Shown: positions 9,796 to 43,976 of the stretch, one piece after another
Layout of the letters: every line of letters begins with the position of its first letter
Position numbering within the stretch: the first letter of the stretch is position 1
Origin: a virus
Lineage: Duplodnaviria > Heunggongvirae > Uroviricota > Caudoviricetes
DNA: 64,000 nucleotides
IMG/VR virus record: IMGVR_UViG_3300035034_002381
Location: 1 to 64,000 of that record
Reading direction: 5' to 3' (one strand)
Program-made: the position numbers and the translations under genes
The notes under the pieces: model-generated
Database searches by the model: none
Told to the model about the DNA's origin: nothing
The model's input: the letters and a program-made list of their open reading frames with translations, nothing else

Positions 9796-9796
9796 C

Positions 9797-26562: not shown

Positions 26563-26973
26563 ATGAAAGCCTTTACTTATGTTATAGATATTGATGACAC
26601 TATCAATATTACCGATAGAGATGAAAATAATATAGGACTGTATTCTCAGTCTCGGCCGATACTTAAAGTTATCAATAAAATTCGAAGACTTAAAAAAGAA
26701 GGCCACAAAATCATACTTTTTACTGCTAGAGGTATGCGTACATTTAATAATGATGTCAAAAAAATCGAAGATTTTCATAGAGAAACACTCGTTAAATGGT
26801 TAAATGACCATGAAGTCCCTTATGACGAACTACAGTTCGGTAAACCATGGGGCCCCCATGTAATATATGTCGATGATCGTGCTGTTACTATTAACCAATT
26901 TGTTTTGGGTGGTCCCGAAAATCACAGAAGTTATACACACATTAACAAAACAGTTATAAATGATGAATTATAA
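26563..26973 (+). CDS. HAD-superfamily phosphatase
   Basis: Motif I VIDIDDTI (DxDxT), motif II ILFTARG, motif IV GKPWGPHVIYVDDRA. Confidence 0.6.
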   Translation: MKAFTYVIDIDDTINITDRDENNIGLYSQSRPILKVINKIRRLKKEGHKIILFTARGMRTFNNDVKKIEDFHRETLVKWLNDHEVPYDELQFGKPWGPHVIYVDDRAVTINQFVLGGPENHRSYTHINKTVINDEL

Positions 26974-28660
26974 AGTAATTATTCCCGCGGCAGGGAAGGC
27001 ATCAAGACTCAAGCCTTTATCTTCTTCAATGTCAAAATCAATGGTGCCAGTAAATGGTAAACCAATAATTTCATATATTCTTGATCAACTGTTTGAACTA
27101 GGAAATCCATTTCAAATAGTTATTGTTGAAAATGAGCTCGGTGATATTCAAGATTTTGTTAAAAACGCATATCCAAATTATTATGAAGAATCCCGTATTC
27201 TTTTTGCAACTCAAAAAGAAAGGTTAGGTCCTTTGCATGCTATTGAAATTGGTGCAAATAGGTTTCCGGAAAATGATAACATGCCAATTATGGTTTGGCT
27301 CGGAGATACAATCTGTTTGGAAATGGGTGAGTTGCCAGTTAATGAATCTTTATTAATTACATCGCCTGTCGCCGATTATAAAAGATGGTGTTTAGTAGAT
27401 AACGAGAATGTCTTCTATGATAAACCAGATAACAAACCAAGCACTAACCAAGCTTTAATAGGTATATATTATTTCCATGATTTTAAGGCCTTCTACGAGG
27501 CCCTAGATAAGGGAATGCAAGCTCCTATGATTAAAGATGAACATCAAATATCGGCTTTATTAGAAGCATATAAAAAACAACATATATTCAAAATCAGAAA
27601 AACTGATGAATGGTTTGATTGTGGTGAGTTACATACATTTTATGAATCTAAAGCAAGACTTCTTGGAAGATCTGCCAGGTCATTTAATAGTCTAGAAGTA
27701 AATACATTCCATAACACAATTACTAAATCTTCATTAACATTCGAAGGTAAACTGAAAATTGAGAATGAAAAAAATTGGTATTTAGGTTTACCTGAGAATA
27801 TTCAGATTCTCACACCTAGAGTATTAAAATCAAATTCAGGTACGCTAGTTATGTCGCAAGAACCTGGAACACCTCTTAATGAAATGTGGCTTTATGAGGA
27901 TTTGACTGATGATACATGGAAAAGAATAATTGATAAAACGTTACTTATACACAATAAAATTTTCTATCAATCTAGATATATTCCTAAATCTTCTAAATTA
28001 GATAGATTTGCTGCAAGAAAGGAAATGTATCTGACTAAAAATATTGACAGATTGACAGAAATTTCATTCCTGCCTTTTGCACAGAAAAATATAAAAATGA
28101 TTCGAGATTTTGTGCGGGTTACTGGTGAATTATTAATTGAAGATGAAGGTCGTTGGTCGCCACATTTTCATGGAGATTCTCACATGGGTAATATTTTATT
28201 TGAACCTTTACAGGGAAGTATGAAATTTTTGGATCCACGTGGAAAGTTTGGAAATATCGTAGGCATTGAGGGCGATATGTATTATGATATGGCTAAAATT
28301 GCGCAAGATTTTCTTTTACGCTATCCTGAAATTTTATCTGGTCATTATCATTTTAGTGGAGATAATTTTGACCAGCTTGAATTTTATAGAAATGACGAGA
28401 GATCTAAAACTATGCTAAAACATTTCAGAAAAAGAATTGGTGAATATGGTTATATTCCTAATCTTGTTTTAATGTTAGCAACTGTGCTTATCATAACTTG
28501 TATACCTTTTCATAAAGACGATCCAGAAAGACAAAAAGCATTTTGGTATATGGCAGTAAATGTTATTAAAGAAAGAGGGTGGAATATCCAACTCGAAGAT
28601 CATCTCAAAAAACAAAAATTACAATTATCAGACAAGATACATAATCTATACAACTTATAA
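26960..28660 (+). CDS. Bifunctional nucleotidyltransferase / APH-fold kinase (LicC-LicA-like). It would activate a phospho-alcohol or sugar-1-phosphate as an NDP derivative
   Basis: N-terminus KVIIPAAGKASRLKP...VPVNGKPIISYILDQL (sugar-phosphate nucleotidyltransferase G-x-G-T-R-L-like motif). C-terminus HFHGDSHMGNILF and FLDPRG (Brenner kinase motif of choline/aminoglycoside kinases). Confidence 0.6.
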   Translation: MMNYKVIIPAAGKASRLKPLSSSMSKSMVPVNGKPIISYILDQLFELGNPFQIVIVENELGDIQDFVKNAYPNYYEESRILFATQKERLGPLHAIEIGANRFPENDNMPIMVWLGDTICLEMGELPVNESLLITSPVADYKRWCLVDNENVFYDKPDNKPSTNQALIGIYYFHDFKAFYEALDKGMQAPMIKDEHQISALLEAYKKQHIFKIRKTDEWFDCGELHTFYESKARLLGRSARSFNSLEVNTFHNTITKSSLTFEGKLKIENEKNWYLGLPENIQILTPRVLKSNSGTLVMSQEPGTPLNEMWLYEDLTDDTWKRIIDKTLLIHNKIFYQSRYIPKSSKLDRFAARKEMYLTKNIDRLTEISFLPFAQKNIKMIRDFVRVTGELLIEDEGRWSPHFHGDSHMGNILFEPLQGSMKFLDPRGKFGNIVGIEGDMYYDMAKIAQDFLLRYPEILSGHYHFSGDNFDQLEFYRNDERSKTMLKHFRKRIGEYGYIPNLVLMLATVLIITCIPFHKDDPERQKAFWYMAVNVIKERGWNIQLEDHLKKQKLQLSDKIHNLYNL

Positions 28661-28670
28661 AAAACATACT

Positions 28671-28949
28671 ATGAGCAAAGATTTAGAAAAAGCTAGTGAG
28701 ACACTAGAAGAAACATTGACAGATATCCAAAAGGTGGCAGCTGCTAATTTTTATGATATTGTACAAATTAGTTTAGCCGATAAAGAAGGTAAAGTAGTTG
28801 GTAAAGCTTCTATGAAATATGAAGATATTTTAGCAATGACTAAGATGCATACACAAGATTCTTCACACGTTGTAGGAATGTTATTTCATGCAGTCGAATC
28901 AGAAACTCGTAACAAATTACGAGAAGAAAAAGAAAATGAAGCCAAATGA
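28671..28949 (+). CDS. Hypothetical protein
   Basis: Start moved to the internal ATG (MSKDLEKASE) to avoid a 100-nt overlap with the upstream gene. Confidence 0.35.
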   Translation: MSKDLEKASETLEETLTDIQKVAAANFYDIVQISLADKEGKVVGKASMKYEDILAMTKMHTQDSSHVVGMLFHAVESETRNKLREEKENEAK

Positions 28950-29134
28950 TTTTTAAAGTAAGAGTAGAAGAAAAGAGCATAGAAGATGTTATAGAACTTA
29001 TTGAAACAGGAGAAGGGAAAAAAGGTCTCCAATTTGATCTATATAATGAAAAACCATATTTTTCACATGTAGAAATTTTCGTTAATACTGATGATTTCTA
29101 CACATTAAAGGATTATTTAAATGAACAAACCTAA
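28946..29134 (+). CDS. Small hypothetical protein
   Basis: 62-aa ORF. Confidence 0.3.
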   Translation: MIFKVRVEEKSIEDVIELIETGEGKKGLQFDLYNEKPYFSHVEIFVNTDDFYTLKDYLNEQT

Positions 29135-31064
29135 GACTATATGTCTTGTTATGATTGTAAAAAATGAGGCAAAAAATTTACCTCGTTGTTTTTCTACGAT
29201 CAAACATATTATTGATTATTGGGTAATTGTTGATACTGGTTCAACTGATAACACACAGGAAGTTATACAGAAAGAGTTAGCCGATATTCCTGGTGTATTA
29301 ATGGAAAGACCGTGGGTCAATTTTGGTCATAATAGATCCGAATCTTTGGCTTTTGCTAAAAACAGAGCAGATTATCTTTTGCTTTGTGATGCTGATGAAC
29401 AAATTATACCTACACACAATTTTGACAAATCTGAGTTGACTCTTGATCAATATCATTTAAGATATAATGGGAGCTTAGATTATATGGTTCCTTATCTTAT
29501 TAAGTCTAATTTGGCTTGGAGATTTGTAGGAGTTACCCATGAATTTTTGACAGCAAGTGACACAAAATCTTCAGGTGAGATTAAAAGCCTTTCAATTAAA
29601 GATTGGGGAGATGGTGGAGCAAAATCTGATAAATTTGAAAGAGACATTAAATTGCTCGAACAAGGTTTGATTGATGAACCGAAGAATGTTAGGTATATGT
29701 TTTATCTAGCAAATTCTTATAAGAATACTAAGGATTTTGATAACGCAATCAAATGGTATAAAAAACGTATCGATGCAGGGGGTTGGATAGAAGAAGTTAC
29801 ATGTTCATATGAATATATGGGAGGATGTTATCAGCAGAAAAATGACCACGGGAATGCGATTAAAACATGGATAGATGGTTATGAATTTAATCCTTCTCGT
29901 GCTGAGTGTTTATATGAGGCAGGTAAATTACTTCGTGAAGAAAATAAGAATAGAATAGCTTACGAATTTTTACAAAAGGCTAAAGAAATTCCATATCCTA
30001 CTAACGATAGATTATTTATCAAAAGAGATGTTTATGAATATTTGATAGATTATGAACTGACTATTTGTGCATATTATGTTAAACCAGAATATGATATGAC
30101 CGAGACATTTAAAAGGCTAATCTTTTGGCCAAGTCATTTACAACAAAACATTATACAAAATTTTAAGTTTTGGGCTAAAGATTTGAATACACTTATAGGT
30201 CAAGAGGAAAGTATGATCTTGGCTAAAGATTTGATTAGTAATGATTTGGTTGAGGGTTTTACACCTAGTTCCCCATCAATTCTTTTTCATAAAAATCGCA
30301 AGTACATAAATGTGCGCCAAGTATCATATAAAATTGACGAAAATGGTAAGTATTTAGATCGTGCAAGTGGAGGTCATTGTAAACATGTGAATACAATTAA
30401 CACAATGTATTGGACTGATGGACCCTCATATGACACGGAAAATTTTAAACCCAATGATATTTCTACTAAACATGTGAATGGTATTGAAGATCTAAAACTA
30501 TATACACACAATGGAGTAATCAAATACACTGGGACAAAATGGTTGGATTATAACAAAATTTCTATAGTTATTGGTGAGTATACTAAAGAAGGTCTAGATA
30601 ATTATGCTATTCTAGAGTCTCCAGAAGGAAGGAATGTTGAAAAAAATTGGGTACCGTTTGGATTAGATAATGAAGAACTTTTTGTATATGATTGGAATCC
30701 AATAAAAATTGGAAGAATCAAAAATAATAAACTAGTAATCAAAAATTTAAAAACTAGTTTTCCTAACTTGCGTGGATCAGCTCCTGGTAAACTTATTGGA
30801 GATCATATCTATTTTTTATGTCATTTTGTAGAATATTCTACACCAAGAATTTACTATCATATCTTCATTAAAATGCATAAAGATAATTGGGAAAAAATCG
30901 AGATTTCTAAACCGTTTGTTTTTGAAAAACCACAAATAGAATATTCAGTAGGATTTGATTATAATATTAAGACTGATGATATACATATTGCATATAGTGT
31001 AAATGATTCGAATGCAAGAATCAAATCTTATTCACAAACACAATTTCAAAAACTTTTTACTTAA
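29121..31064 (+). CDS. Family 2 glycosyltransferase with a central TPR-like region
   Basis: N-terminal GT2 signature ICLVMIVKNEAKNLPRC...VIVDTGSTDNT; TPR-like YLANSYKNTKDFDNAIKWYKKRI. Confidence 0.65.
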   Translation: MNKPKTICLVMIVKNEAKNLPRCFSTIKHIIDYWVIVDTGSTDNTQEVIQKELADIPGVLMERPWVNFGHNRSESLAFAKNRADYLLLCDADEQIIPTHNFDKSELTLDQYHLRYNGSLDYMVPYLIKSNLAWRFVGVTHEFLTASDTKSSGEIKSLSIKDWGDGGAKSDKFERDIKLLEQGLIDEPKNVRYMFYLANSYKNTKDFDNAIKWYKKRIDAGGWIEEVTCSYEYMGGCYQQKNDHGNAIKTWIDGYEFNPSRAECLYEAGKLLREENKNRIAYEFLQKAKEIPYPTNDRLFIKRDVYEYLIDYELTICAYYVKPEYDMTETFKRLIFWPSHLQQNIIQNFKFWAKDLNTLIGQEESMILAKDLISNDLVEGFTPSSPSILFHKNRKYINVRQVSYKIDENGKYLDRASGGHCKHVNTINTMYWTDGPSYDTENFKPNDISTKHVNGIEDLKLYTHNGVIKYTGTKWLDYNKISIVIGEYTKEGLDNYAILESPEGRNVEKNWVPFGLDNEELFVYDWNPIKIGRIKNNKLVIKNLKTSFPNLRGSAPGKLIGDHIYFLCHFVEYSTPRIYYHIFIKMHKDNWEKIEISKPFVFEKPQIEYSVGFDYNIKTDDIHIAYSVNDSNARIKSYSQTQFQKLFT

Positions 31065-32362
31065 TGTACATTATAAAAAACAATAAACTTGAATCTACTG
31101 ATAATATCGATTTATTTTTTAATGAGATAAATGTTGGACAACATATTGCTAAATATGGATATTTCGAAAGTGACCTTATTAATTGGTTAAAGCTTACATA
31201 TAAAAATAATGATAAAATCTTTTTAGATTTAGGAGCGCACATAGGTTCATATTCAATAGAATTAGCAGAAAATTTTCATTCAGTTCATTCATTTGAACCT
31301 AATCCAACAGTCTATAATCATTTATGTGCTAATGTTGCATTAAAGAGATTATCAAATAGGGTATTTCCACACAGAGTTGCATTATCGGATAATAAATCTA
31401 AACAGCCATATTATGAGAGATCCAAAGATGGTGGAGGTAATGGAATTGAAGTTGTAAGAGAGAACGATAAGCACTCATTCTTTGTAGAATCTAAATGTTT
31501 AGATGATTATTCTTTCGATAAAGAAATCGGTTTGATTAAAATTGATATCGAAGGTCATGAGTATAAAGCTATTTTGGGTGCATATGAAACTTTGAAAAAC
31601 TCATATTTCCCACCTATAATTTTCGAATCTTGGGCGCAAAATACACACCCAGAATATTCACAAGAAATACTTTTAGAAATTCGTGATAAAACATTTGATG
31701 TATTAAAGGATTATGGATACACTGTTAAATCCATAAGTGGATATAATGAAATGTTTATTGCTGTTCAAGAGCGTGAAAAATCTCAAGAAGATATTATTGT
31801 TGAAGGTCTTTTGACAGATAAGTTAGACGTATGGCTTAACTCACCTGGAGGGACTCGAAGCAATTATATAGCCGATGTTCTAGAAAAAAGTAATTTAAGA
31901 GTGAGAAACGAATCCTGGTATAAGTATGGTTGTCATTGGACTTCTCCTTTATTTGAAAGGGAATTTAAAACTACAAGATTGTTTTGCTACACTAGCGATA
32001 TCGGACTCGCATTGACAAGTCAGTTAAATGCCAATACTATTGATAAACTGAATTTTGCAGATTTTTATAATGAACCATGGGATTTATATCGATGGATACA
32101 AAATATTAAAAAACAAGTGATTAACTGGTCGGATCCTGGCGTATTCTTTTTAAATACCGACTATTTAAATGATAAAGATATTCAGTCTGAATTTAAAACT
32201 CTTACTGGAGATAGTTTAGACATATCAGATTTCAGACTTGACCGTAAATCTAAAAAATTACATCCTGCATTAATACAATACATGGATGAGATTAATGAGA
32301 TTAATGAGTTATTAGCAAAATTACCTAATGCCGGTTTTGGCGGAGAAGTTGATGAAGGTTAA
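31064..32362 (+). CDS. FkbM-family methyltransferase with a C-terminal extension
   Basis: FLDLGAHIGSYSIELAE matches the FkbM D-x-G-A-x-x-G motif. Confidence 0.55.
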   Translation: MYIIKNNKLESTDNIDLFFNEINVGQHIAKYGYFESDLINWLKLTYKNNDKIFLDLGAHIGSYSIELAENFHSVHSFEPNPTVYNHLCANVALKRLSNRVFPHRVALSDNKSKQPYYERSKDGGGNGIEVVRENDKHSFFVESKCLDDYSFDKEIGLIKIDIEGHEYKAILGAYETLKNSYFPPIIFESWAQNTHPEYSQEILLEIRDKTFDVLKDYGYTVKSISGYNEMFIAVQEREKSQEDIIVEGLLTDKLDVWLNSPGGTRSNYIADVLEKSNLRVRNESWYKYGCHWTSPLFEREFKTTRLFCYTSDIGLALTSQLNANTIDKLNFADFYNEPWDLYRWIQNIKKQVINWSDPGVFFLNTDYLNDKDIQSEFKTLTGDSLDISDFRLDRKSKKLHPALIQYMDEINEINELLAKLPNAGFGGEVDEG

Positions 32363-32816
32363 AAATATGAAATTAGAAATTGATTTTAGTTTGAGCGATT
32401 TAAAAAATAATTGGAAACCAAAAATTAAGATTTGGTTATCATGGGAGTACTAAAGGTGATAAGATAGAATTTGAAATGTATTTTGATGAATATCACAGTG
32501 AATGGACTTCTTTTAAAGATAAAGCGTTTAAAGGATTTGTTCTTAAAAAAATAGATAGAATATTAGACGAAAATTGTTAAAAGTCAAATATTTTGATTAT
32601 ATTTATCCTAAATTAATAACAATGGAATATAAATATAATGAGCTGGAAAAACTTCTTATTCTTATGGGTAAAAAATATCCAAATGACCATGATCTTGGCA
32701 ATCAAGCGCGTAAACTTATTCAAAAGATCAAAGAAAAATAAATTCAATCCAATAGCTGATTGGAGGCCGTTAACTGAGGAAGAATTAAAGTCAAATCTTT
32801 TTAAACCACCCTTTTA

Positions 32817-34009: not shown

Positions 34010-34122
34010 TAACCTCGATAGTAGAAATTATTAAAGAATCTCTAATTGGTAAATCAGTTATAGTTGCCGAGTATTACCCGGATAACAATGAGGGAAATTA
34101 CAAATTCTAAAATAAAGTTAAC

Positions 34123-35989: not shown

Positions 35990-35995
35990 AAAGAT

Positions 35996-37714
35996 ATGAG
36001 AAAAATGAACGCTTTCTTAGCAACCGATGGTTATAAAACAGGCCATCACATAATGTATCCTGAAGGAACTATTGAGGTATATGATAATTTAACACCCCGC
36101 AGTTTTAAATACGCAATCAACAATGTCGAGTATGTTATTGCTGTGGGTCAAAAAATGGCAGTCACAGAAATCAACGATATGTTTAACGAAACATTTTTTA
36201 GACATGAAGATGTTGAAAGACTTGCCTTTCATTTATTTAGACAAGGATTACCTGAACAAAAAGCTAAAGAAACCGCAAGAAATAAAATTAAAGCCGAAGT
36301 ATGTAGTGAAATCAAAAAGGAGTTTTCGTTATATCTAGATATGAAATATGATGTTTCGCATATTGAAAGACTTTGGGATTTAGGATATCTTCCTGTAAAA
36401 ATAAAAGCTTTACCAGAAGGTGTAAAGGTCCCAATAAAGGTTCCTGTACTTACAATTGTAAATACTTTGCCAGATTTTTTCTGGTTACCTAATTTCTTGG
36501 AGACTATTATTTCTAATTTGTTATGGAAACCTATGACATCTGCAACTATTGCGTACGAGTTCAAGAAAACTTTGACTAAATGGGCAATGAAAACTGATAG
36601 CAAAAATGTTTCTATTGTAGAATTTCAGGCACATGATTTTTCAATGCGAGGAATGGATTCTATTTATGCTGCTGCTTCATCAGGTTTAGGTCATGCATCA
36701 TCATTCCTTGGAAGTGATACAATACCAGTAATTCATGCAGCAAGATATTATTATGGTGATCAAGGTCCTATTATACATTCTGTAAATGCTACAGAACACA
36801 GTGTCATGTGTGCTGGAGAAAAAGATAGTGAAATTGAAACATTCAGACGATTATTGCGTCTTTTCCCGACAGGAATCTTATCAGTAGTTTCTGATACTTG
36901 GGATTTATGGAAAGTGATAGTAAAATATCTTCCTGAATTAAAGGACGAAATTCTAAAAAGAGCAGGAAAACTGGTTATTAGACCTGACTCTGGAAATCCT
37001 GTTGATATTATTTGTGGTTTTGATCATAATAGATTTGATACACACGAAGAAGCAGAAAAATATTATAGAACTTATGGAATAAAAGATCCAAAATACTATG
37101 TAAAAAACGAATTCTTTACTGTAATTTCACATTCAGGCAACAATTTTAAATATGCAGATTTAGAAGAGACTCCTGCTGATAAAGGAGTCGTGCAATTATT
37201 ATGGGAAATCTTTGGAGGGCAAATAAATGAAGATGGATTCAAAGTTTTAAATGAACACATTGGCGCAATTTATGGTGATAGTATTAATTTCGAAAGAGCA
37301 AATCAGATTTGTGAGAGACTAGCCAGCAAAGGATTTGCGACTACAAACGTTGTACTTGGAATAGGATCCTTCACATATCAGTATAACACTCGTGATAACC
37401 ATGGATTTGCCGTTAAAGCTACTCATATAACTATTCAACATCCTGATGGAAAAATGGAAGAAAGAGACATATTCAAAGACCCACTAACATCGGTAGGTAC
37501 AAATAAAACTAGTGCTAAAGGATTTATTCAAGTACTTAAAGAAAATGGAGAGTATATTATGAGAGATCAGGTTAGTAGAGAACAAGAAGAAAATTCTTTA
37601 CTTACAATGATTTATTTAGATGGTAAAGTTCTTTCCGAAGACACACTCAAAAGTATTCGTAGAAATGTGAATAACGAATTGGCTGTTGAATTAGGATTAT
37701 ATGAAGTAGCATAA
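35996..37714 (+). CDS. nadV: Nicotinamide phosphoribosyltransferase (NadV / NAMPT) family enzyme
   Basis: N-terminus NAFLATDGYKTGHHIMYPEGT matches the NAMPT-family TDSYK start; 572 aa. Confidence 0.65.
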   Translation: MRKMNAFLATDGYKTGHHIMYPEGTIEVYDNLTPRSFKYAINNVEYVIAVGQKMAVTEINDMFNETFFRHEDVERLAFHLFRQGLPEQKAKETARNKIKAEVCSEIKKEFSLYLDMKYDVSHIERLWDLGYLPVKIKALPEGVKVPIKVPVLTIVNTLPDFFWLPNFLETIISNLLWKPMTSATIAYEFKKTLTKWAMKTDSKNVSIVEFQAHDFSMRGMDSIYAAASSGLGHASSFLGSDTIPVIHAARYYYGDQGPIIHSVNATEHSVMCAGEKDSEIETFRRLLRLFPTGILSVVSDTWDLWKVIVKYLPELKDEILKRAGKLVIRPDSGNPVDIICGFDHNRFDTHEEAEKYYRTYGIKDPKYYVKNEFFTVISHSGNNFKYADLEETPADKGVVQLLWEIFGGQINEDGFKVLNEHIGAIYGDSINFERANQICERLASKGFATTNVVLGIGSFTYQYNTRDNHGFAVKATHITIQHPDGKMEERDIFKDPLTSVGTNKTSAKGFIQVLKENGEYIMRDQVSREQEENSLLTMIYLDGKVLSEDTLKSIRRNVNNELAVELGLYEVA

Positions 37715-37790
37715 TGGAACAAGTTACATAATTTTCTAAAATAAACTGATTCTATTAAAACTTTTCAAGTCTAGATTAATATAAAATATA

Positions 37791-39107
37791 ATGAAAAGAT
37801 CTGGTATTAAAGTAGCGGTATTTCCCATGGGTTCAATTATCCGATTTAGGAAAGATGGAATCAAAAGATCGTTTGGTCGTTTAGAATATTATAATTTGAT
37901 TTGGGCGTTGGCCAGAAATCCAAGTATTTCGGAAATTTGGCTTTTACAAGTTTCTGATTGGGAACAATTGACTGATGATGAAAAAATTGATTTTGATCCT
38001 AGAAAAGTTATTCGTAACATTTATGCGGAATTTAAAGTAGACAAACCTAATAGTAAAAAACAAGAATCTTACGCTGATCTTTGGAACAAAATTTCTCATC
38101 TTAAGCAACCTGATTTTGCAATTGTATTTTCTACACAAGGTCTTACTAGAATTTCTATACCAAATATTATACCTAAAGTAAAAAATCCTGAAGAAAAAGC
38201 TAAATGTTTAGAAATGACAATACGCTATTGTTCTTCACAAATGTATTATCTAAACAATTCAGAAATTCCATATTTTTTGGTAGTTAATGATGGCAGATTT
38301 TTGTATACTAATACACATACAAAATATCTGGATATGTTTAATTTACCCAAAGAAATCATGGGATTTTACAAAAATGATGATTATATACTTCATCATTATG
38401 ATAAAATGCCGGATGATGGTGGCAAAATGACTACTGATGTTGTTAAGTTATCATACAGTAAAATGATTTGGCTTAATAATATCAGTGAAAAAATCATAGA
38501 CCCTGCCAACATAGAGAAAACTGAAAAGTTTTCTATTGTAGCTATGCAGGCAGCTTATGGTAAAGATAAACATGATCCTAGATATTCTATTCTAAAGGAG
38601 TGGTTTTTAGACGTAGATGGAAATGAAGATGTTTCGATTTATGGTAAATGGGGAGAATCTTATGTTAAAGATTATCAACATTTTAAAGGCTTAAAGCCAC
38701 ATACTGAAATTGATGAAATTTTCAAGAAAACTAGGTACACATTATTGATTCCAACAGAACCTTTATGGGTAACTACGAAAATATGTGAGATGTTGAAATT
38801 GGGTGTTGTCCCGTTTTTGCATCCTAGTTATGATGAAAAAAATCTATCATTTGGAGAGGATTCATTTTTTAGAGTAAAAAATCCGGAAGATTTAAAAAAG
38901 AAGATTTCATTTTTAGAAAAAAATCCAGATAAAAGAATCAAGCTCATACAAAAGGCTCAAGAAAAATATATGGAAGGTGTCACAAACGGAACTTGTGTCG
39001 TCGACGCAATTAATCCATATCTTCAACGGGCTAATATTGATGTAGAATTGCAACATGGATTTAGTGATGAACTAATTCGTAAGCGCAAAGTTAAAAAATT
39101 ATTTTAA
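37791..39107 (+). CDS. Putative GT-B glycosyltransferase with resemblance to phage DNA beta-glucosyltransferase
   Basis: N-terminal KVAVFPMGSIIRF and C-terminal PLWVTTKICEMLKLGVVPFL pattern-match T4 BGT (MKIAIINMGNNVINF ... LRVWETMASDAVMLID) only loosely; recalled from memory. Confidence 0.3.
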   Translation: MKRSGIKVAVFPMGSIIRFRKDGIKRSFGRLEYYNLIWALARNPSISEIWLLQVSDWEQLTDDEKIDFDPRKVIRNIYAEFKVDKPNSKKQESYADLWNKISHLKQPDFAIVFSTQGLTRISIPNIIPKVKNPEEKAKCLEMTIRYCSSQMYYLNNSEIPYFLVVNDGRFLYTNTHTKYLDMFNLPKEIMGFYKNDDYILHHYDKMPDDGGKMTTDVVKLSYSKMIWLNNISEKIIDPANIEKTEKFSIVAMQAAYGKDKHDPRYSILKEWFLDVDGNEDVSIYGKWGESYVKDYQHFKGLKPHTEIDEIFKKTRYTLLIPTEPLWVTTKICEMLKLGVVPFLHPSYDEKNLSFGEDSFFRVKNPEDLKKKISFLEKNPDKRIKLIQKAQEKYMEGVTNGTCVVDAINPYLQRANIDVELQHGFSDELIRKRKVKKLF

Positions 39108-39110
39108 ATT

Positions 39111-40319
39111 ATGAAGAATAAATTTTCTAAGGATGGACATTGGAGATTCGGTACTATAGTTCCATTAATCGGGGGAATGACCATATCCAACCAACAAGCA
39201 ACCGGAGATAATCCGGACTTTTTAATATCTTATCCAGCGTTTGCAGGCAATGATTCTCATTGTGTTAATCATTTTAAAGATACCCCATATTATGTAGTCG
39301 ACCCAGAAACTAATGAATTACCTGAAGACGATACTTTTCAAAATGTAGATTTTGTGTCTGCAGTGTGCCCATGTGCAGGACTTTCTATGTTAAATACTTC
39401 TAAGAAAAGAGGATCTGATGCAGAAATGAATAATTGGATGTATAAATCTGCAGAATTAGTTTTAGAACAAATTAAACCCAAAGTTTTTTGGGGGGAGAAT
39501 GCACCAGGTCTATATACAAAATCTGGTGAAGGTGTAGTCAAAAAATTGAGAGAAATTGCTGAAAAGAATGGTTATGTACTTTCATTAGTCAAAACTAATA
39601 CCTTTTTACATGGTATACCACAACATAGAACTAGAACTTTTTACTTTTTTTGGCAAGGTAAACATGCGCCAATACTGAATTATACCGAGCGGGATGCACC
39701 AACTCTTAAAGAATATCTAGATCAAATTCCTGAAAATGCTTCTATGCAAGATGAAAAATTCGGCTTAGAAAGTATGAATAGTCTTTGGTTTAAATTCTTA
39801 AAAGATCAAAACATAAAAATTTCAGATGTACAAAAAAGTACGTGTAAATCAATTATGGATTATTGTGTAGCCGAAAAATTGATGCCGAAAATGGTTGATT
39901 GGGGTGAAGAAAATGGATATGATAAAATGGTCAGGACTGCTAAGCATATTCTACATAAACAATCTATGGGTAAAGGTTGGTGGGACGCTACACCATTAGT
40001 ACCAACAGATACTATTAATGCGCTGATTAGTAAGAATGCTGGAATTGTCCACCCGAACGGAGAAAGACCAATTAATACCCGAGAAGCTTTATGGTTAATG
40101 GGATTACCACATGATTTTACTATGGTCGATTATGACAATAGAAAAAATAGCAATCACATTTGCCAAAACGTACCGGTAACCACTGCAAAAGACTGGACAT
40201 TCGAAGTGATGAAATTTATCAATAAAGATATTGAAAAAATTGCAACGCCGTTTCTAAAACAAAACAATATCAAACAAAGAATAGATTTACAAGAAAATAA
40301 ATCCAAAGCACTTTTTTAA
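39111..40319 (+). CDS. DNA (cytosine-5)-methyltransferase
   Basis: Motif I PLIGGM, motif IV CPCAGLS (PC...S), motif VI GENAPGL (ENV-type), motif VIII PQHRTRTFYF (QxRxR). Confidence 0.7.
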   Translation: MKNKFSKDGHWRFGTIVPLIGGMTISNQQATGDNPDFLISYPAFAGNDSHCVNHFKDTPYYVVDPETNELPEDDTFQNVDFVSAVCPCAGLSMLNTSKKRGSDAEMNNWMYKSAELVLEQIKPKVFWGENAPGLYTKSGEGVVKKLREIAEKNGYVLSLVKTNTFLHGIPQHRTRTFYFFWQGKHAPILNYTERDAPTLKEYLDQIPENASMQDEKFGLESMNSLWFKFLKDQNIKISDVQKSTCKSIMDYCVAEKLMPKMVDWGEENGYDKMVRTAKHILHKQSMGKGWWDATPLVPTDTINALISKNAGIVHPNGERPINTREALWLMGLPHDFTMVDYDNRKNSNHICQNVPVTTAKDWTFEVMKFINKDIEKIATPFLKQNNIKQRIDLQENKSKALF

Positions 40320-40321
40320 AT

Positions 40322-41761
40322 ATGAAACCTTTATTTGTAATAGAAGACGAAATACAAAATAAGTCTAATATATTCGAACTAATTAATCCACAAAAATTAG
40401 ATCCGAATAAAAAGACTATATTAATAATCACATACAAAAATTTTGCTGGTGATTTTGACTATATTTATGGATTTAATCACAAGATTATTGAATTATTAAA
40501 AGATCAATATAATATTGTATTTGCTGGAAAGGAAATTAAAAAGAATGTCATCGATATAGATAATTTCTATTTAATTGATATGAAAGGTTATACGAGTTTA
40601 AATCAGAATAGATTTAAGCGCAAAAAAGAAGATCCTAACAGTAACCAAATTAACAGAAATATTTTATGGGAAGAATTTGAATCTGCGTTCGGTGATTTAG
40701 AAATTGATTTAATTTTTTATGCGACACCAGAGTATGCGATTTTACCTCATGGTAAATCTTATCATAAAGATTTCAAAGAAATACAAAACGAAATTCATGA
40801 TTATGTAGGCGCAGATACTAAAAAGATTCAGCGTATTAACGAAATTATGTACGATATCTATGAAAATTATGATACCCATGCATCTATTTTAATGTTTTCT
40901 GCCTGGCATAAAAATGTCATGATGAACTTGCCGGTTTTTCTAAAAGAAAGAAATTCGTTTAAAGTCATTGCATTTTCTATTGATCCTGCAAATACTTATC
41001 GATATTTGGAACACCATGGAATAGAATGTACCAATTTTTATTTTGAAGAAGATAAACGTGGTACTCGCAATTTCGAAAAATTTCCAATAGCACATCTTCA
41101 ACATTTAATTTTTGAAAACAACGAAAATCCTACAGAAAAATATAGTTTAGAAAAAACTACAGATTTTTTCTTTATGGGAACGATTATTCAAGAAAAGGGA
41201 AGTAGAATGCAGATGTGGTATGAATTTTTATCAGATTTAAAATTAGACGATAAATCTAATTTTTGGATCCCAATTAAACATAATGGAATTTACCGAACTA
41301 AAAAACAAGAAACTAGTGGTCATACCAAAAAGGGTTTACAGATTATTGATGAAAAATTCACAGACATTAAAAATGCTATCATAAATCATCCCAATTTTTC
41401 TGGACATTTATTACCATCAGAAGTCAAAAAACATATTGTAGCTTATAAATATTCATTAGTATTGCGATGTGTTTCTATTTATGATAGTCTAAATTTTAGA
41501 CCTATTTATTATGTTTATTTAAACATTCTTCCATTTTTAGATCATATGTATGATCCAGATTATTTACAGATTCCTAAGAAATTTCAAGACAAATTAGCAG
41601 TATCTAATTCACGAGATATCGAGGATAGAATCAAATATTATAATCAAAATCCAAAAGAAAGAATTCAGTTATTAAAAGAAATGAGAGAGTTTTTTGAAAT
41701 AGACGAGTTTTTAGAAGATTGGAAAAACATAACACTAAAACATATAGATCATGCTAAATAA
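40322..41761 (+). CDS. Hypothetical protein
   Basis: 479-aa ORF; no family assigned. Confidence 0.4.
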   Translation: MKPLFVIEDEIQNKSNIFELINPQKLDPNKKTILIITYKNFAGDFDYIYGFNHKIIELLKDQYNIVFAGKEIKKNVIDIDNFYLIDMKGYTSLNQNRFKRKKEDPNSNQINRNILWEEFESAFGDLEIDLIFYATPEYAILPHGKSYHKDFKEIQNEIHDYVGADTKKIQRINEIMYDIYENYDTHASILMFSAWHKNVMMNLPVFLKERNSFKVIAFSIDPANTYRYLEHHGIECTNFYFEEDKRGTRNFEKFPIAHLQHLIFENNENPTEKYSLEKTTDFFFMGTIIQEKGSRMQMWYEFLSDLKLDDKSNFWIPIKHNGIYRTKKQETSGHTKKGLQIIDEKFTDIKNAIINHPNFSGHLLPSEVKKHIVAYKYSLVLRCVSIYDSLNFRPIYYVYLNILPFLDHMYDPDYLQIPKKFQDKLAVSNSRDIEDRIKYYNQNPKERIQLLKEMREFFEIDEFLEDWKNITLKHIDHAK

Positions 41762-42398
41762 GATATTTAAAAGTTTGAGTAATTCTGAAAATGAAGCATT
41801 ATGTGTACAAAGAACTAATCTTTTATTCGAAGCATTAGATATTATAGAAAAACATAATGGGAAAGCTTGGTTAGATTGTGGTACTTTGTTAGGTGCGTAT
41901 AGAGATGGTGAATATATTCCATGGGACGTCGATGTAGATTTAGGAATTAATATCGAGGATGTTACTGAGGAAATGCTAAATGATTTCAGAGATAAATATA
42001 ATATACGACACGATAATGGAAACTTAGATCAATACAAATTTTGCTCATTTTATAAGAGAGATGAAAATGGTGATAATTACAAATTTAGAAGATGTAATTT
42101 ATGGATTGATTTACATATGTACTATCCAAATTATGATGGTACAAGAACTATGACAATTACTACAGGAAAAATTAGAGCACCTAAAAAAATCTTTCCAGCA
42201 CCTGCTGAATGTATCGAGAATTTAGAACAAATTGAATGGCAAGGTAGAAAAGTAAATATTCCTAGTAAAACTGTAAAATATTTAGAACAATGGTATGGAT
42301 ATGATTGGGACGTACCTAACGATAAATGGAAAATGTCTCCGAGTTGGTACGATAATCCAACAAATGACAAAATTATTCAAGGTAAAACCCTCTTTTAA
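41751..42398 (+). CDS. licD: LicD-family phosphotransferase (transfers phosphocholine, ribitol phosphate or similar from a CDP/NDP donor)
   Basis: AWLDCGTLLGAYRDGEYIPWDVDVDLGI matches the LicD DxGTLLG...PWDDDxD motif. Confidence 0.65.
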   Translation: MLNKIFKSLSNSENEALCVQRTNLLFEALDIIEKHNGKAWLDCGTLLGAYRDGEYIPWDVDVDLGINIEDVTEEMLNDFRDKYNIRHDNGNLDQYKFCSFYKRDENGDNYKFRRCNLWIDLHMYYPNYDGTRTMTITTGKIRAPKKIFPAPAECIENLEQIEWQGRKVNIPSKTVKYLEQWYGYDWDVPNDKWKMSPSWYDNPTNDKIIQGKTLF

Positions 42399-42416
42399 AC
42401 AAAATAAACAAAACAA

Positions 42417-43178
42417 ATGCATATATTAAATGAATATTTTGACAAGATTTATATTACCAACCTCGACTCGGCCAAAGATAGATATGAAAGATTATCTAAA
42501 GAACTGGATTCATTTGGCGTTGTTTATGAAAGATTCAAAGCATTGACTCCAGATGATGCAAGAAAGGTATTTGCTGAAAAAGGCCTAAAGATTCCTAAAA
42601 GTAATAGTGGAGCTCTTGGTTGCGCAACTTCACATTATATATGCTGTCAACAGGCTGCGAAAAATGGACTTAAAAGAATTTTGATTCTTGAAGATGATGC
42701 AAGAATAACCGATATAGATTTTAATCAAGAGACTCAAAATTTAGTTGAACAAATAAGAAAAACCGACTGGTTTTATCTAAAGCTTGGTTATAATATCACT
42801 AACCAGATGTTAGACGAAAATTTTGAGTTTCATAGAGTTTCAGAAAATTTGTTTAATCTTTCAAAAAGTTCTATGACCACCGCTATAGCTTTCAATATCG
42901 AAAAAATCGTAGAGGATGAGAATGCTTCCACAGTTTTTATTTCTGATCACGCATTAGAAAATAGTAAATTGAATATTCATATTGACCATAGATTGTTTAT
43001 GATGTGTAACGAATTCGGAATTCTACAATGCCATTATTATCCAGCAATATTTACTCAGACTGATGGGTATTCATACATAGGAAAAGAAGAAAGGAAATTC
43101 TCTAATATTGATAAAAGAACAAACAGAATATTCAAAGAGCATATACAATCTTCTAGCTCAACAAAAAAATTATTTTAA
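42417..43178 (+). CDS. Family 25 glycosyltransferase (LPS-biosynthesis-type)
   Basis: N-terminus FDKIYITNLDSAKDRYERL matches the GT25 start (IxVINLxxSxxR). Confidence 0.5.
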   Translation: MHILNEYFDKIYITNLDSAKDRYERLSKELDSFGVVYERFKALTPDDARKVFAEKGLKIPKSNSGALGCATSHYICCQQAAKNGLKRILILEDDARITDIDFNQETQNLVEQIRKTDWFYLKLGYNITNQMLDENFEFHRVSENLFNLSKSSMTTAIAFNIEKIVEDENASTVFISDHALENSKLNIHIDHRLFMMCNEFGILQCHYYPAIFTQTDGYSYIGKEERKFSNIDKRTNRIFKEHIQSSSSTKKLF

Positions 43179-43196
43179 ACAAAGAAAATAGAAAAT

Positions 43197-43976
43197 ATGG
43201 AATTTTTAAATATACTACAATCGGAATTACAATCGGGATTTATTTACATACCTAATAGAGGCAATGCTGGGGATGTTGTCATTCAACAATCTACTATTAA
43301 ATTTTTTGAAAAAAATAATCTAAACTTCGAATTAGGAAAAAACACTACAACTTATGTTGGGGAAAATCTAGTTTATGGTGGGGGTGGAAATTTGATTGGA
43401 AAATACCAACCGGCTAAAAAATTCATAAAATTAAATGCGGAAAAAAATCATATAATGATATTACCGCATACAATTAAGAACAGCGAAAAGTCTTTAAATA
43501 TGCTGAATAAGGATTCTATTGTTTTTTGCAGAGAAAGAATATCTCATGAATATGTTAGTAAATTTATTGAAAAATGTTATTTACATAAAGATATGGCTTT
43601 TCATCTAGATTTAGAATCTTATAAAAAGGAATCTAAATATGAAGTAGGAAATATATTTAGAATGGATGTCGAATCTTCTAATAACGTTAAAAAAATTCCA
43701 TCTAATAATGTGGATATATCCAGTGTTTTTAATCGTAGAAATCAGCATACAAATTTAGAAGTAGCTCAAGCTGTATTTGATGATTTTGTTAATTATATAG
43801 CAGATTTCGAAATTGTAAACACAGATAGATTACATATTGCAATTATTGCTGCAATATTGGGAAAAAATGTTAATCTTTATCCTAACTCATATTATAAAAA
43901 TAAAGCCGTATATGACTATACATTATCGTTAGAATATCCCAACGTCAATTTTATCGATGAAGTAAAATATAGATGA
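43197..43976 (+). CDS. Polysaccharide pyruvyl transferase-like protein
   Basis: YIPNRGNAGDVVIQQ matches the GNxGDxxI motif of the CsaB/WcaK family. Confidence 0.4.
   Translation: MEFLNILQSELQSGFIYIPNRGNAGDVVIQQSTIKFFEKNNLNFELGKNTTTYVGENLVYGGGGNLIGKYQPAKKFIKLNAEKNHIMILPHTIKNSEKSLNMLNKDSIVFCRERISHEYVSKFIEKCYLHKDMAFHLDLESYKKESKYEVGNIFRMDVESSNNVKKIPSNNVDISSVFNRRNQHTNLEVAQAVFDDFVNYIADFEIVNTDRLHIAIIAAILGKNVNLYPNSYYKNKAVYDYTLSLEYPNVNFIDEVKYR

Follow-up and report, generated by a model that had tools for sequence, protein, structure and literature searches.

A probable expanded cytosine hypermodification operon

Positions 26563 to 45468 of the window (the whole 64,000-nucleotide stretch of viral DNA that was analysed) form one functional unit, probably a pre-replicative DNA cytosine hypermodification operon that has been split open and expanded. 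The core of this unit is, with good confidence, an operon for glycosylation of 5-hydroxymethylcytosine (5hmC) in DNA. The source is a very large phage, and the genes named in the initial annotation were all recovered, co-oriented on the + strand and with coordinates confirmed. Their domains were recovered too, with Pfam E-values of 1e-11 to 1e-17 and a weaker match for the GT-B protein at 37791-39107 (Glyco_trans_1_2, 3e-6). That annotation, however, closed the cluster at 43976, and two further genes, a TMK-like kinase and a thymidylate synthase (TS) homolog, carry the unit on to 45468. Between 37791 and 45468, neighbouring genes either overlap or are no more than 54 bp apart. The features are:

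26563..26973, +, HAD-IIIA phosphatase, AfhF-like, predicted sugar-1,5-bisphosphate 5-phosphatase; core
26960..28660, +, fused NDP-sugar pyrophosphorylase (residues 1-240) and APH-like sugar kinase (residues 250-540), AfhE-like (NT-kinase); core
29121..31064, +, three-domain glycosyl-transferring protein: GT-A (GT2), TPR, GH130-like five-bladed beta-propeller; accessory
31064..32362, +, FkbM-family SAM methyltransferase with a 200-aa C-terminal half, predicted sugar O-methylation; accessory
32817-33455, +, DenV-like pyrimidine-dimer glycosylase homolog (Pyr_excise, 2e-10); inserted passenger
33398-34009, +, Rv2179c/RNase T-like 3'-5' exonuclease (Rv2179c-like, 9e-18); inserted passenger
34123..37714, +, NARP1-type NAD+ reconstitution genes; outside the glycan pathway
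34123-35022, +, PRPS-like Adps candidate (PRPS-like match weak)
35015-35989, +, P-loop kinase and NT5C-like fusion; NARP1 block
35996-37714, +, Namat
37791..39107, +, GT-B glycosyltransferase, conserved NT-kinase-module partner, candidate DNA glycosyltransferase 1; core
39111..40319, +, C5-cytosine DNA methyltransferase, full set of catalytic motifs; travels with the module
40322..41761, +, BGT-like GT-B, candidate DNA glycosyltransferase 2; core in the window's lineage
41751..42398, +, LicD-family phospho-alcohol (CDP-alcohol dependent) transferase; accessory
42417..43178, +, GT25-family (GT-A) glycosyltransferase; accessory
43197..43976, +, EpsI-type polysaccharide pyruvyl transferase; accessory
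44031..44603, +, TMK-like P-loop nucleotide kinase, predicted 5hmdCMP kinase; core
44536..45468, +, TS homolog, dCMP hydroxymethylase signature; core

Seven of these genes make up the core module, namely the HAD, NT-kinase, two GT-B, C5 methylase, TMK-like kinase and TS genes. It is interrupted once by the GT2-TPR-GH130, FkbM, DenV, exonuclease and NARP1 NAD+ rescue pair genes, and again by LicD, GT25 and pyruvyl transferase. A close relative (L096), which shares the window's protease-gp23-SET synteny, has the module in the compact order HAD-NTK-(small ORFs)-BGT-like-GTB-C5MT-TMK-TS, and the extra genes of the window are therefore insertions into an operon.

Homology and gene context suggest how the core would work. 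The TS homolog would convert dCMP to 5-hydroxymethyl-dCMP, which the adjacent TMK-like kinase would phosphorylate, with host NDP kinase completing the triphosphate, and the phage polymerase would then insert 5hmdC into DNA. The kinase activity of the NT-kinase fusion would add a phosphate to C1 of a sugar-5-phosphate, the HAD phosphatase would strip the distal phosphate, and the N-terminal domain of the fusion would then make the NDP-sugar. This sugar may be a pentose or similar; since no A5P isomerase is present, it need not be arabinose. Both GT-B proteins would attach it to 5hmC in DNA through the hydroxymethyl group, with the C5 methylase as a co-travelling part of the unit. The accessory enzymes, encoded 3' of the sugar-activation genes (GT2-TPR-GH130 and FkbM) and in the insertion that separates the glycosyltransferases from the kinase/TS pair (LicD, GT25 and pyruvyl transferase), would lengthen and decorate the glycan on the DNA, adding further hexose(s), a phospho-alcohol taken from a CDP-alcohol, a pyruvate ketal and an O-methyl group. 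That LicD, GT25 and the pyruvyl transferase act on the DNA glycan is quite conceivable, if short of probable; for GT2-TPR-GH130 and FkbM we make the same proposal more tentatively.

The predicted modified base is cytosine

In a PDB search, the TS homolog (294 aa long if translation begins at the alternative start, 44584) matched T4 dCMP hydroxymethylase (1b49) best at 1.4e-14, followed by MilA and ThyA. Its segments DFVCT, MRSND and GLSYD correspond to L143D, C146 (Cys146), D169 and N177D, the pattern of dCMP hydroxymethylases, from which 5-hydroxy-dCMP synthases differ by D169N (PMC13326640). Bas47, a known arabinosyl-5hoC phage, by contrast has RSQN in the alignment that gives MRSND for the window. 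The six-residue TS signature of the window is shared by every module-linked TS homolog (61/61). The TMK-like kinase has a weak Thymidylate_kin match and the P-loop EGCDRVGKDT; orthologs with 52-53% identity lie directly 5' of the TS homolog in L096, L101 and L104, and the same TMK-TS pairing is found in 9183, L093, L098, RB69 and DLP3 (PMC13326640).

The seven-gene module recurs in about 90 other phage loci, adjoining replication genes, and is kept across unrelated phage backbones. Its neighbours elsewhere include genes for DNA polymerase, clamp loader, UvsX, DnaB, gyrase, dUTPase and dCMP deaminase. Of 80 IMG/VR loci found through the NT-kinase, all 80 had the HAD gene, 67 the C5 methylase, 54 the TS homolog and 53 the GT-B. 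A complex appendage on hydroxymethyl-pyrimidines in DNA had been one of three options raised initially, beside virion glycosylation and remodelling of the host surface, two readings that may hold for the accessory enzymes; the gp42-like TS and the recurrence of the module beside replication genes favour it, and the base is, as predicted from these residues, specifically cytosine.

Sugar activation and transfer

The HAD protein matches the EcbF/BcbF capsule-biosynthesis phosphatase family (TIGR01689, 3e-28), phrog_1238 (5e-22) and PNKP-HAD (6e-5). It is 41-46% identical to the product of the HAD gene directly 5' of the NT-kinase in phages XG4, 9183 and DLP_6, and 29% identical to the 'putative phosphatase' of Bas47. 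In the NT-kinase, residues 5-233 match NTP_transferase (Pfam, 6e-17), and the top families for this domain are sugar-1-phosphate nucleotidyltransferases (rmlA_long, 4e-20; Arch_glmU, 2e-19). Pfam finds no kinase domain, neither Choline_kinase nor APH, in the C-terminal half; the motifs HGD....N, DPRG and YD.AK there are nonetheless invariant in a five-way alignment (A2), and a 40%-identical homolog has weak APH and Fructosamin_kin matches. Full-length tblastn matches were obtained in XG4 (29%, 8e-53), 9183 (27%, 2e-44), DLP_6 (4e-32) and the 'UDP-arabinose biosynthesis' gene of Bas47 (8e-16). Both genes show homology along their entire length to AfhF and AfhE of the phages with arabinosyl-cytosine, in which AfhE-type proteins are bifunctional sugar kinases/NDP-sugar pyrophosphorylases (PMC13326640). 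By homology, we assign the pair as an AfhF/AfhE-type NDP-sugar module like that of the cytosine-arabinosylating phages RB69, DLP3 and HY126. The LicC/LicA phosphocholine label that the initial annotation had given it was rejected, the fusion being AfhE-homologous end to end and lacking Choline_kinase and APH Pfam matches, although the nucleotidyltransferase domain and the motifs of the kinase half bear out the fusion itself. Homology searches thus left LicD as the surviving part of the proposed Lic-like pathway and moved the NT-kinase to the AfhE type.

The GT-B protein at 37791-39107 has no PDB sequence match. It resembles the product of the XG4 gene directly 3' of the NT-kinase (27%, 3e-37) and gp048 of 9183 (25%, 1e-15), and has orthologs with 42-44% identity in L096 and L100. 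The 479-aa ORF at 40322-41761, previously unannotated and with no Pfam match, has T4 beta-glucosyltransferase as the top match of its structural model, 3.4 Z units above the next match, and we assign it on this modelled fold as a BGT-like GT-B glycosyltransferase. The C5 methylase (Pfam DNA_methylase, 8.5e-24; motifs PCAGLS, ENAPGL and QHRTR) is 32% identical to an XG4 cluster gene product (2e-57) and was found in 74 of 95 sequences searched. It counts against the core, in that full replacement of C by 5hmC is hard to square with an intact C5 methylase. No dCTPase was identified within the window.

The inserted genes

LicD matches its Pfam family (1e-16) and NF045866 (4e-20) and aligns with FKRP (6kaj, 1e-8) across the DxD motif, and on these matches the assignment is genuine. 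The first 11 nt of the gene are also the last 11 nt of the BGT-like gene. Orthologs with 53-58% identity lie directly 3' of the module C5 methylase in L101/L102, L104, L108 and L109, and two genes 3' of it in a JGI contig (3300072015); in five other lineages, LicD thus occupies the slot between C5 methylase and TMK-TS. A separate TagD-like cytidylyltransferase accompanies it where the contig reaches (L101, L104 and the JGI contig). No cytidylyltransferase to supply LicD lies within the window, which counts against the accessory layer. The GT25 protein matches Glyco_transf_25 (2e-17) and, weakly, TAGT (8e-4) in Pfam, as well as COLGALT1 (2e-5) and Mimivirus R655 (9e-4). A GT25 gene (32% identity) adjoins the BGT-like gene in L097, and another lies 3' of the C5 methylase in the JGI contig. 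The pyruvyl transferase (PS_pyruv_trans, 4e-13) has 176 homologs, with 40-45% identity to bacterial EpsI-like enzymes and 30-32% to genes of Rhizobium Kleczkowskaviridae phages, and is absent from the other module loci examined. Judged by these similarities it is a typical bacterial EpsI-type enzyme, which again counts against the accessory layer.

In the first insertion, the GT2-TPR protein (Pfam, 4e-11) belongs to a family that is common among bacteria and among jumbo phages in which no such module is seen, and its GT-A and TPR half resembles the peptide glycosyltransferase SunS; both points count against the accessory layer. The FkbM gene overlaps its stop and matches Methyltransf_21 (1e-15), TIGR01444 (2e-23) and phrog_8156 (4e-27); the other module loci examined contain no homolog of it. 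The same slot in L100 holds a DenV ortholog (50% identity) and an RNase_T-family exonuclease without detectable similarity to that of the window. Most of what had been taken for interleaved nucleotide-metabolism genes (34123-37714) is the NARP1 NAD+ reconstitution pair; Namat matches the phage Namat structures 9W5X/9W5W in the PDB (PMC12774641) at 2e-127, whereas its matches to canonical NAMPT reach 1e-52 to 1e-60. As such clearly unrelated cargo shares the insertion sites, a common function cannot be read from location alone.

In L097, L098, L099 and L100, the same positions hold a varying set of GT25, GT2, methyltransferase, epimerase and TAGT-like genes. Phage GT-A and GT-B enzymes related to those of LPS and teichoic acid synthesis attach mono- to trisaccharides to 5hmC, and genes for APH, epimerase and secondary GT enzymes occur in GT-B clusters linked to ThyS (bioRxiv 10.1101/2023.12.21.572611).

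Alternative explanations

Another way to view the locus is as two unrelated systems, with the core glycosylating 5hmC and the accessory genes making or tailoring a glycan of another kind, whose acceptor might be virion proteins (of the capsid or fibres), a soluble molecule, or a host envelope polymer reached from the cytoplasm. GT2-TPR-GH130, FkbM, LicD, GT25 and the pyruvyl transferase would then have landed in a permissive insertion hot spot, as DenV, the exonuclease and NARP1 did at the same sites. We consider this somewhat unlikely. It accords with the absence of LicD, GT25, pyruvyl transferase, FkbM and GT2-TPR from 80/80 IMG/VR module loci, the EpsI-like character of the pyruvyl transferase, the position of the major capsid gene about 5 kb upstream of the cluster, and GT2-TPR and GT25 genes in jumbo and huge phages without a 5hm-type TS. 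Another huge phage (LR756508) has a canonical ThyA next to a large glycan cluster with GT25, GT29 and GT10 genes, so huge phages do carry glycan clusters unrelated to hmC. However, the return of LicD to exactly the same slot in other lineages, the GT25 genes again adjoining the BGT-like gene or methylase in two, and the LicD overlap within a gapless block (37791-45468) argue against it, as does the lack of membrane, export and lipid-carrier genes: cluster proteins have no predicted transmembrane segments, and no flippase, polymerase or initiating phosphoglycosyltransferase is among the cluster genes.

We regard as most improbable a bacterial-type Lic pathway in which choline or another amino-alcohol, activated by a kinase plus a cytidylyltransferase, is passed by LicD to a phage or host surface glycan and leaves phosphocholine there, with DNA uninvolved. 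LicD is genuine, the nucleotidyltransferase domain has a weak N-terminal match to LicC (1jyk, 7e-6 over 68 residues), and the kinase half falls in the APH/choline-kinase superfamily by its motifs; yet the fusion is an ortholog-level AfhE-type match, always paired with an AfhF-like HAD, its nucleotidyltransferase affinities and missing kinase matches point the same way, LicD lies 13 kb from it, 80/80 loci have it without LicD, the LicD of relatives comes with its own TagD-like cytidylyltransferase, and a LicB-type transporter is absent. Scarcely more probable is that DNA plays no part, the TS homolog and kinase serving nucleotide supply and all glycosyltransferases, both GT-B proteins included, a non-DNA glycan. 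ThyA and nucleotide kinases are common in large phages, and the GT-B protein at 37791 combines a weak Pfam match with the lack of any PDB sequence match; against this stand the L143D/N177D signature, unlike ThyA (PMC13326640), the T4 beta-glucosyltransferase-like fold of the 479-aa protein, and conservation of the module across unrelated backbones in replication-gene neighbourhoods.

If the expanded cytosine hypermodification operon is as we propose, sugar-coated cytosine in the phage's own DNA would offer escape from bacterial nucleases, and accessory tailoring would diversify the modification against modification-dependent nucleases. The accessory transferases wedged into the operon may build an unusually elaborate DNA-linked glycan.

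Genes of the cluster

The domains named in the initial annotation, which read positions 26563-43976 as a LicC-LicA-LicD phospho-alcohol pathway, are all present at the positions it gave and have family-level support (E-values in brackets). Its end point falls short of the whole cluster, since a TMK-like P-loop kinase and a TS homolog lie just beyond it. The genes considered here are as follows.

26563-26973, +, HAD phosphatase (TIGR01689, 3e-28)
26960-28660, +, nucleotidyltransferase-kinase fusion, NTK (NTP_transferase, 6e-17)
29121-31064, +, GT2-TPR-GH130 protein (GT2 and TPR, 4e-11)
31064-32362, +, FkbM methyltransferase (1e-15; TIGR01444, 2e-23)
37791-39107, +, GT-B glycosyltransferase, GTB (3e-6)
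39111-40319, +, C5-cytosine methylase, C5MT (Pfam DNA_methylase, 8.5e-24)
40322-41761, +, 479-aa protein, modelled as BGT-like
41751-42398, +, LicD (1e-16)
42417-43178, +, GT25 (2e-17)
43197-43976, +, pyruvyl transferase (4e-13)
44031-44603, +, TMK-like P-loop kinase
44536-45468, +, TS homolog

From 37791 to 45468 the genes either overlap or are separated by gaps of no more than 54 bp. No membrane segment is predicted in any protein of the interval; hydropathy averaged over 19 residues reaches its maximum in an internal helix of the kinase domain, and every other protein stays below 1.4. Nor do the Pfam matches of the cluster ORFs include an initiating phosphoglycosyltransferase, a flippase or ABC exporter, or a polymerase, so that the export and polymerase machinery of Wzx/Wzy- or ABC-dependent cell-surface polysaccharide clusters was not found in this one. 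A promoter and terminator scan gave counts at or below those of shuffled sequence and says nothing on operon structure.

The window itself is a co-oriented, AT-rich stretch (about 31% GC) of a large tailed phage. It carries an array of 21 tRNA genes (229-10979), with three tRNA-Met(cat) and duplicated Tyr, Ile, Val, Ser, Thr, Leu and Arg species, and head genes for a T4-type prohead protease and a gp23-like major capsid protein, the latter sharing 40-43% identity with the capsid proteins of Prevotella Lak megaphages and of an uncultured 462-kb phage. The exact contig matched is a 64.4-kb ENA metagenome assembly, with near-identical contigs in two JGI metagenomes and two SRA runs, and megablast of the whole interval against 50,697 phage records gave no match. 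A peptidase M43 (pappalysin-like) protein is encoded upstream of the head genes (12713-14710). Directly after the major capsid gene, a 561-aa ORF (21117-22802) matches REase_MTES_1575 and DUF7487 and could encode a homing or defence-type nuclease. The HAD gene is closely preceded by one for a SET-domain (lysine methyltransferase-like) protein (26041-26505), which occupies the same position, at 36% identity, in the relative L096. Among the tail and baseplate genes, a protein at 62635-63840 has three S1 RNA-binding domains and a GH3-middle-like segment.

Sugar activation

The fusion is a single 566-aa polypeptide in which an N-terminal sugar-1-phosphate nucleotidyltransferase is joined to a C-terminal APH-like kinase, and it can be aligned over its full length with proteins of the AfhE type, which belong to the gene set of the arabinosyl-5-hydroxycytosine phages. 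The best-scoring models for the N-terminal domain are the sugar-1-phosphate nucleotidyltransferases RmlA, GlmU and GalU, whereas LicC (1jyk) matches only the first 68 residues. The kinase half has no Choline_kinase or APH match in Pfam at E<=0.01, and its HGD....N, DPRG and YD.AK motifs, those of an APH/choline-kinase-like fold, are invariant in a five-way alignment. Searching isolate phages with the fusion (tblastn) gave 194 records, most of them T4-like coliphages of the arabinosyl-cytosine group. Serratia phage 92A1 is among the records, as are Bas46/Bas47, whose gene carries the annotation 'UDP-arabinose biosynthesis'. Better full-length matches were found in Pseudoalteromonas phage XG4, Enterococcus phage 9183 and Stenotrophomonas phage DLP_6. 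In these three and in the Bas phages a small HAD gene, 29-46% identical to that of the window, adjoins the fusion gene; in the window the two genes overlap by 14 nt.

Lee et al. (NAR 2026, PMC13326640) describe AfhE as bifunctional, with the activities of an arabinose-5-phosphate 1-kinase and a UDP-arabinose pyrophosphorylase, and AfhF as the HAD phosphatase by which the 5-phosphate is removed. The partners of these two enzymes in RB69, DLP3 and HY126 are an arabinose-5-phosphate isomerase, a TMK-like kinase, a TS homolog and DNA arabinosyltransferases of the GT-B type. We conclude from homology that the HAD protein and the fusion are an NDP-sugar synthesis module of the AfhF/AfhE type, with substrate and product predicted. 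The sugar need not be arabinose, because the SIS isomerase of Bas47 has no tblastn homolog in the window or in 94 loci, and no ORF scanned gave a SIS match in Pfam. A heptose (GmhB/HddA/HddC) pathway was also considered and rejected: PHROG wrongly labels the HAD family 'phosphoheptose isomerase', and HddC matches at only 3e-7.

It follows from the AfhE/AfhF homology, the ranking of the sugar-1-phosphate models and the short LicC match that these two genes are not LicC and LicA. Thus, homology searches divided the original proposal, upholding LicD, which has Pfam support and a DxD segment that aligns with human FKRP (1e-8), but reassigning the nucleotidyltransferase-kinase to an AfhE-type sugar kinase/pyrophosphorylase. 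The rest of a Lic pathway was not found in the cluster. There is no LicA choline kinase, the kinase half grouping with AfhE-type sugar kinases; no LicB choline transporter, in that no cluster protein spans a membrane; and no cytidylyltransferase of LicC or other type for an alcohol phosphate, the TagD-like gene of relatives having no homolog in the window.

The TS homolog

Among proteins of solved structure, T4 dCMP hydroxymethylase is the closest to the TS homolog (1.4e-14), with MilA and ThyA behind it. Alignment with E. coli ThyA places C146, L143D, D169 and N177D in the window protein. The catalytic cysteine lies in FVCT, aligned with FMCT in T4 and PCH in E. coli; L143D is read in D-F-V-C and N177D in GLSYD. 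D169 is kept in MRSND, as in T4 gp42, where Bas47 has RSQN in the same alignment. N177D confers dCMP specificity, L143D/E, a matter of water access, accompanies hydroxymethyl rather than methyl products, and D169N marks the flavin-dependent 5-hydroxy-dCMP synthases (PMC13326640). Since the hydroxymethylase signature is present and D169 is retained, we predict that the enzyme makes 5hmdCMP (5-hydroxymethyl) rather than 5hodCMP (5-hydroxy) or dTMP. The same D/C/R/S/D/D signature, D169 included, is found in all 61 of the 61 linked TS homologs. The retained D169 led us to reject a 5-hydroxycytosine pathway. A PDB sequence search with the neighbouring TMK-like kinase gave no match.

The conserved module

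An alignment search of IMG/VR with the fusion gave about 160 matches, from which 80 loci were retrieved and searched by tblastn with all cluster proteins of the window. The HAD gene was found in all 80, the C5 methylase in 67, the TS homolog in 54 and the GT-B of 37791 in 53, counts that are lower bounds as many of the contigs are incomplete. By the same search LicD, GT25, the pyruvyl transferase, FkbM, GT2-TPR, Namat and DenV were in none of them. Gene orders in isolate phages and other loci are listed below.

Gene order in and around the module. XG4 and 9183 are isolate phages; L-numbers denote compared loci or contigs.
XG4: TS-HAD-NTK-GTB-GT-C5MT
9183: TMK-TS-dUTPase-HAD-NTK-GTB, near a DNA polymerase gene
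L093: C5MT-GTB-HAD-NTK-BGTlike-TMK-TS-gyrase
L095: TS-dCMP deaminase-GT-NTK-BGTlike-C5MT-UvsX, in a T4-like polymerase/clamp context
L096: HAD-NTK-(small ORFs)-BGTlike-GTB-C5MT-TMK-TS
L097: Methyltransf_24-GT25-GT2 after the BGT-like gene
L098: cytidylyltransferase and epimerase flanking the BGT-like gene
L099: BGT-like gene within the module; TAGT-like GT after the methylase
L100: GT2-TPR ortholog, DenV ortholog and exonuclease gene between NTK and the BGT-like gene
L101 (5418-7631) and L104 (1771-3979): LicD, then class-I SAM methyltransferase and 137-aa HxGH TagD-like cytidylyltransferase
JGI 3300072015 contig: LicD two genes after the C5 methylase, and cytidylyltransferase, without the SAM methyltransferase; GT25 and Asp/Glu racemase in addition

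The GT-B at 37791 had no match in a PDB sequence search. The 479-aa protein has no Pfam match and 34 metagenomic homologs; its structural model is confident (pLDDT 91.5) and has a GT-B fold closest to T4 BGT. As the BGT-like gene lies inside the TS/kinase/sugar-activation module in at least six loci, genomic context supports this protein as a candidate 5hmC-DNA glycosyltransferase.

Motifs IV (PC), VI (ENV) and VIII (QxRxR) can be read in the C5 methylase, and an intact C5 methylase accompanies the hydroxymethylase-type TS, sugar-activation and GT-B module in 74 of the 95 sequences searched (loci L011-L101), about three quarters. If 5hmC fully replaces cytosine, a methylase that appears from its motifs to be catalytically intact is puzzling. 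A TET/5mYOX route starting from the methylase was rejected; no 5mYOX domain was found, and the 479-aa ORF is assigned as a glycosyltransferase, not a dioxygenase.

Insertions and accessory genes

Locus L096 shares the protease-gp23-SET synteny of the window at about 50% protein identity and has a compact module, relative to which that of the window is interrupted twice. Between the fusion and the GT-B gene are two small ORFs, GT2-TPR, FkbM, a DenV homolog, an exonuclease and three NAD-related genes; between the BGT-like gene and the TMK-like kinase are LicD, GT25 and the pyruvyl transferase.

In relatives, orthologs of LicD with 53-58% identity come immediately downstream of the module C5 methylase in L101/L102, L104, L108 and L109, and TMK-TS follows downstream wherever the contig reaches far enough (that of L108 ends within the methyltransferase following LicD). 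The LicD cassettes of L101, L104 and the JGI 3300072015 contig also hold a small unassigned protein, and all lie between the C5 methylase and the TMK-TS pair. On gene content, the relatives' set is a self-contained, predicted CDP-alcohol and LicD cassette embedded among DNA-modification genes. Scans of IMG/VR with LicD, as a single protein and as an alignment, gave nothing useful, JGI metagenomes gave two short extra contigs, and isolate phages gave only weak matches in two Vibrio phages without DNA-modification context. The window LicD shares its family and DxD motif with bacterial LicD/TarI-type proteins, which decorate teichoic acids, LOS and capsules with phospho-alcohols, and with human FKRP/fukutin, and a small HxGH TagD-like cytidylyltransferase is paired with LicD in relatives as in CDP-alcohol pathways; a bacterial LicD homolog sits with IspD/TarI-like genes. 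Unlike the bacterial systems, the window LicD is a 215-aa soluble protein inside a DNA-modification operon, without membrane machinery and without a cytidylyltransferase.

FkbM homologs in assorted large phages were uninformative, and homologs of the pyruvyl transferase in Rhizobium Kleczkowskaviridae phages have no clear DNA-modification neighbourhood. The DenV-like (Pyr_excise) protein (32817-33455 in the window; 12865-13446 in L091) has an insertion of about 70 aa and is conserved in the same slot in L100; a homolog directly follows the pyruvyl-transferase homolog of Rhizobium phage RHph_Y65.

The NAD-related genes are a separate matter. A 572-aa protein is a Namat-type NAMPT homolog; its match to the crystal structures of phage Namat (9W5X/9W5W) has an E-value of 2e-127, compared with about 1e-52 for canonical NAMPTs. 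Upstream of it, with one gene between, is a PRPS-like Adps candidate (34123-35022) with weak matches (3e-4 in Pfam; 5e-5 in PDB). We read 34123-37714 as an anti-defence set of the NARP1 type (NAD+ reconstitution), unrelated to the glycan. The idea that the PRPS-like gene feeds a ribosyl donor to the glycan was rejected, as it more likely belongs with Namat. The intervening gene (35015-35989) encodes an unusual fusion of a P-loop kinase and an NT5C-like phosphatase.

Discussion

Several independent lines indicate that the core of the cluster is very probably a 5hmC DNA-glycosylation operon, of a type combining TS and kinase with AfhE/AfhF-like sugar activation and GT-B enzymes. It resembles the Afh clusters of RB69, DLP3, HY126 and Bas46/47 (PMC13326640) in its homologous AfhF-like HAD and AfhE-like fusion, in the TMK-like kinase beside a TS homolog and in its GT-B DNA glycosyltransferases, here candidates. 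It differs from them in that TS keeps D169 (5hm type) rather than carrying D169N (5ho type), in having a C5 methylase attached and in lacking a SIS arabinose-5-phosphate isomerase, and identity is only 24-29%. Phage clusters reconstituted by Pyle et al. (bioRxiv 10.1101/2023.12.21.572611) attach glycans of one to three sugars to 5hmC by means of GT-A/GT-B enzymes related to LPS and teichoic-acid enzymes, and the ThyS-linked GT-B clusters in that paper include APH-type phosphotransferases, epimerases, secondary GTs and methyltransferases; LicD and pyruvyl transferases are not mentioned. Compared with the MT/5mYOX- or ThyS-linked clusters of Pyle et al., no 5mYOX/TET enzyme was found in the window, and the TAGT match of GT25 is sub-threshold. 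Phage T4, in glucosylating hmC with gp42, gp1 and its alpha- and beta-glucosyltransferases, draws its UDP-glucose from the host and has no genes of its own for sugar activation; its kinase is of the gp1 type rather than TMK-like, and it lacks the C5 methylase, LicD, GT25, pyruvyl and FkbM genes, all present in the window. Bacillus phage SP-15 has a dihydroxypentyl-uracil that bears a sugar and a glucuronolactone linked by phosphate. Among phage DNA bases it would be the closest earlier example of a sugar-type substituent attached through phosphate; there the base is a uracil derivative and the pathway another.

Whether the accessory enzymes serve the same pathway is a different question, for which the main evidence is recurrence at the same slot. 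That LicD, GT25 and the pyruvyl transferase tailor a DNA-linked glycan would account most economically for their recurrent, gapless placement, and we give this reading something close to an even chance. Action of GT2-TPR-GH130 and FkbM on that glycan is put forward more tentatively. The main rival, which we regard as rather unlikely, is that these genes make a separate protein or envelope glycan and have collected at an insertion hot spot. The insertion sites demonstrably take unrelated cargo, and the cytidylyltransferase that LicD needs was not found in the window. The pyruvyl transferase shares 40-45% identity with ordinary EpsI-type enzymes of bacteria and was seen in no other module locus; GT25 is closest to collagen galactosyltransferase and Mimivirus R655; and the GT2-TPR family has more than 3,000 representatives, is widespread in bacteria, Bradyrhizobium chromosomal proteins among them, and its N-terminal half occurs in jumbo phages. 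An uncultured 484-kb phage (LR756508.1, 296450-327070) has a co-oriented glycan cluster (GT4, a GT29 sialyltransferase-like protein, two GT25, a GT10 fucosyltransferase-like protein, methyltransferases and an epimerase) beside an N6/N4 DNA methylase and a canonical ThyA (3e-89), and large phages therefore carry glycan clusters without a hydroxymethylase. Against a separate glycan stand the return of LicD to the same slot after the C5 methylase and the gapless block in which the window genes lie.

If the accessory enzymes do act on DNA, the two candidate DNA GT-B enzymes would build an oligosaccharide on 5hmC, GT25 and the GT-A/GH130 enzyme would extend it, and LicD would add a phosphodiester-linked alcohol, with a pyruvate ketal and an O-methyl group as further substituents. 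The result would be a 'capsule' on DNA, like a teichoic acid or LOS, whose accessory cassette related phages would swap as O-antigen loci are swapped, driven by modification-dependent nucleases. It is doubtful that this picture of a branched, charged oligosaccharide on phage 5hmC and of its swapped cassette holds as a whole. If true, neither LicD-type phospho-alcohol transfer nor pyruvylation would have a precedent on a glycan attached to a nucleic acid.

Glycosylation of cytosine is a main means by which phages resist restriction enzymes and CRISPR nucleases, and it also supplies enzymes for epigenetic sequencing. The AfhE/AfhF module, so far tied to 5-hydroxycytosine phages, is now linked to a large family with hydroxymethylase-type TS (about 160 IMG/VR matches). 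The variable set at a fixed operon slot (LicD, cytidylyltransferase, GT25, methyltransferases, racemase and pyruvyl transferase) offers concrete candidates for new DNA chemistry beyond neutral mono- to trisaccharides. In this relative of the Lak megaphages, predicted DNA hypermodification and NAD+ reconstitution are brought together in one counter-defence island.
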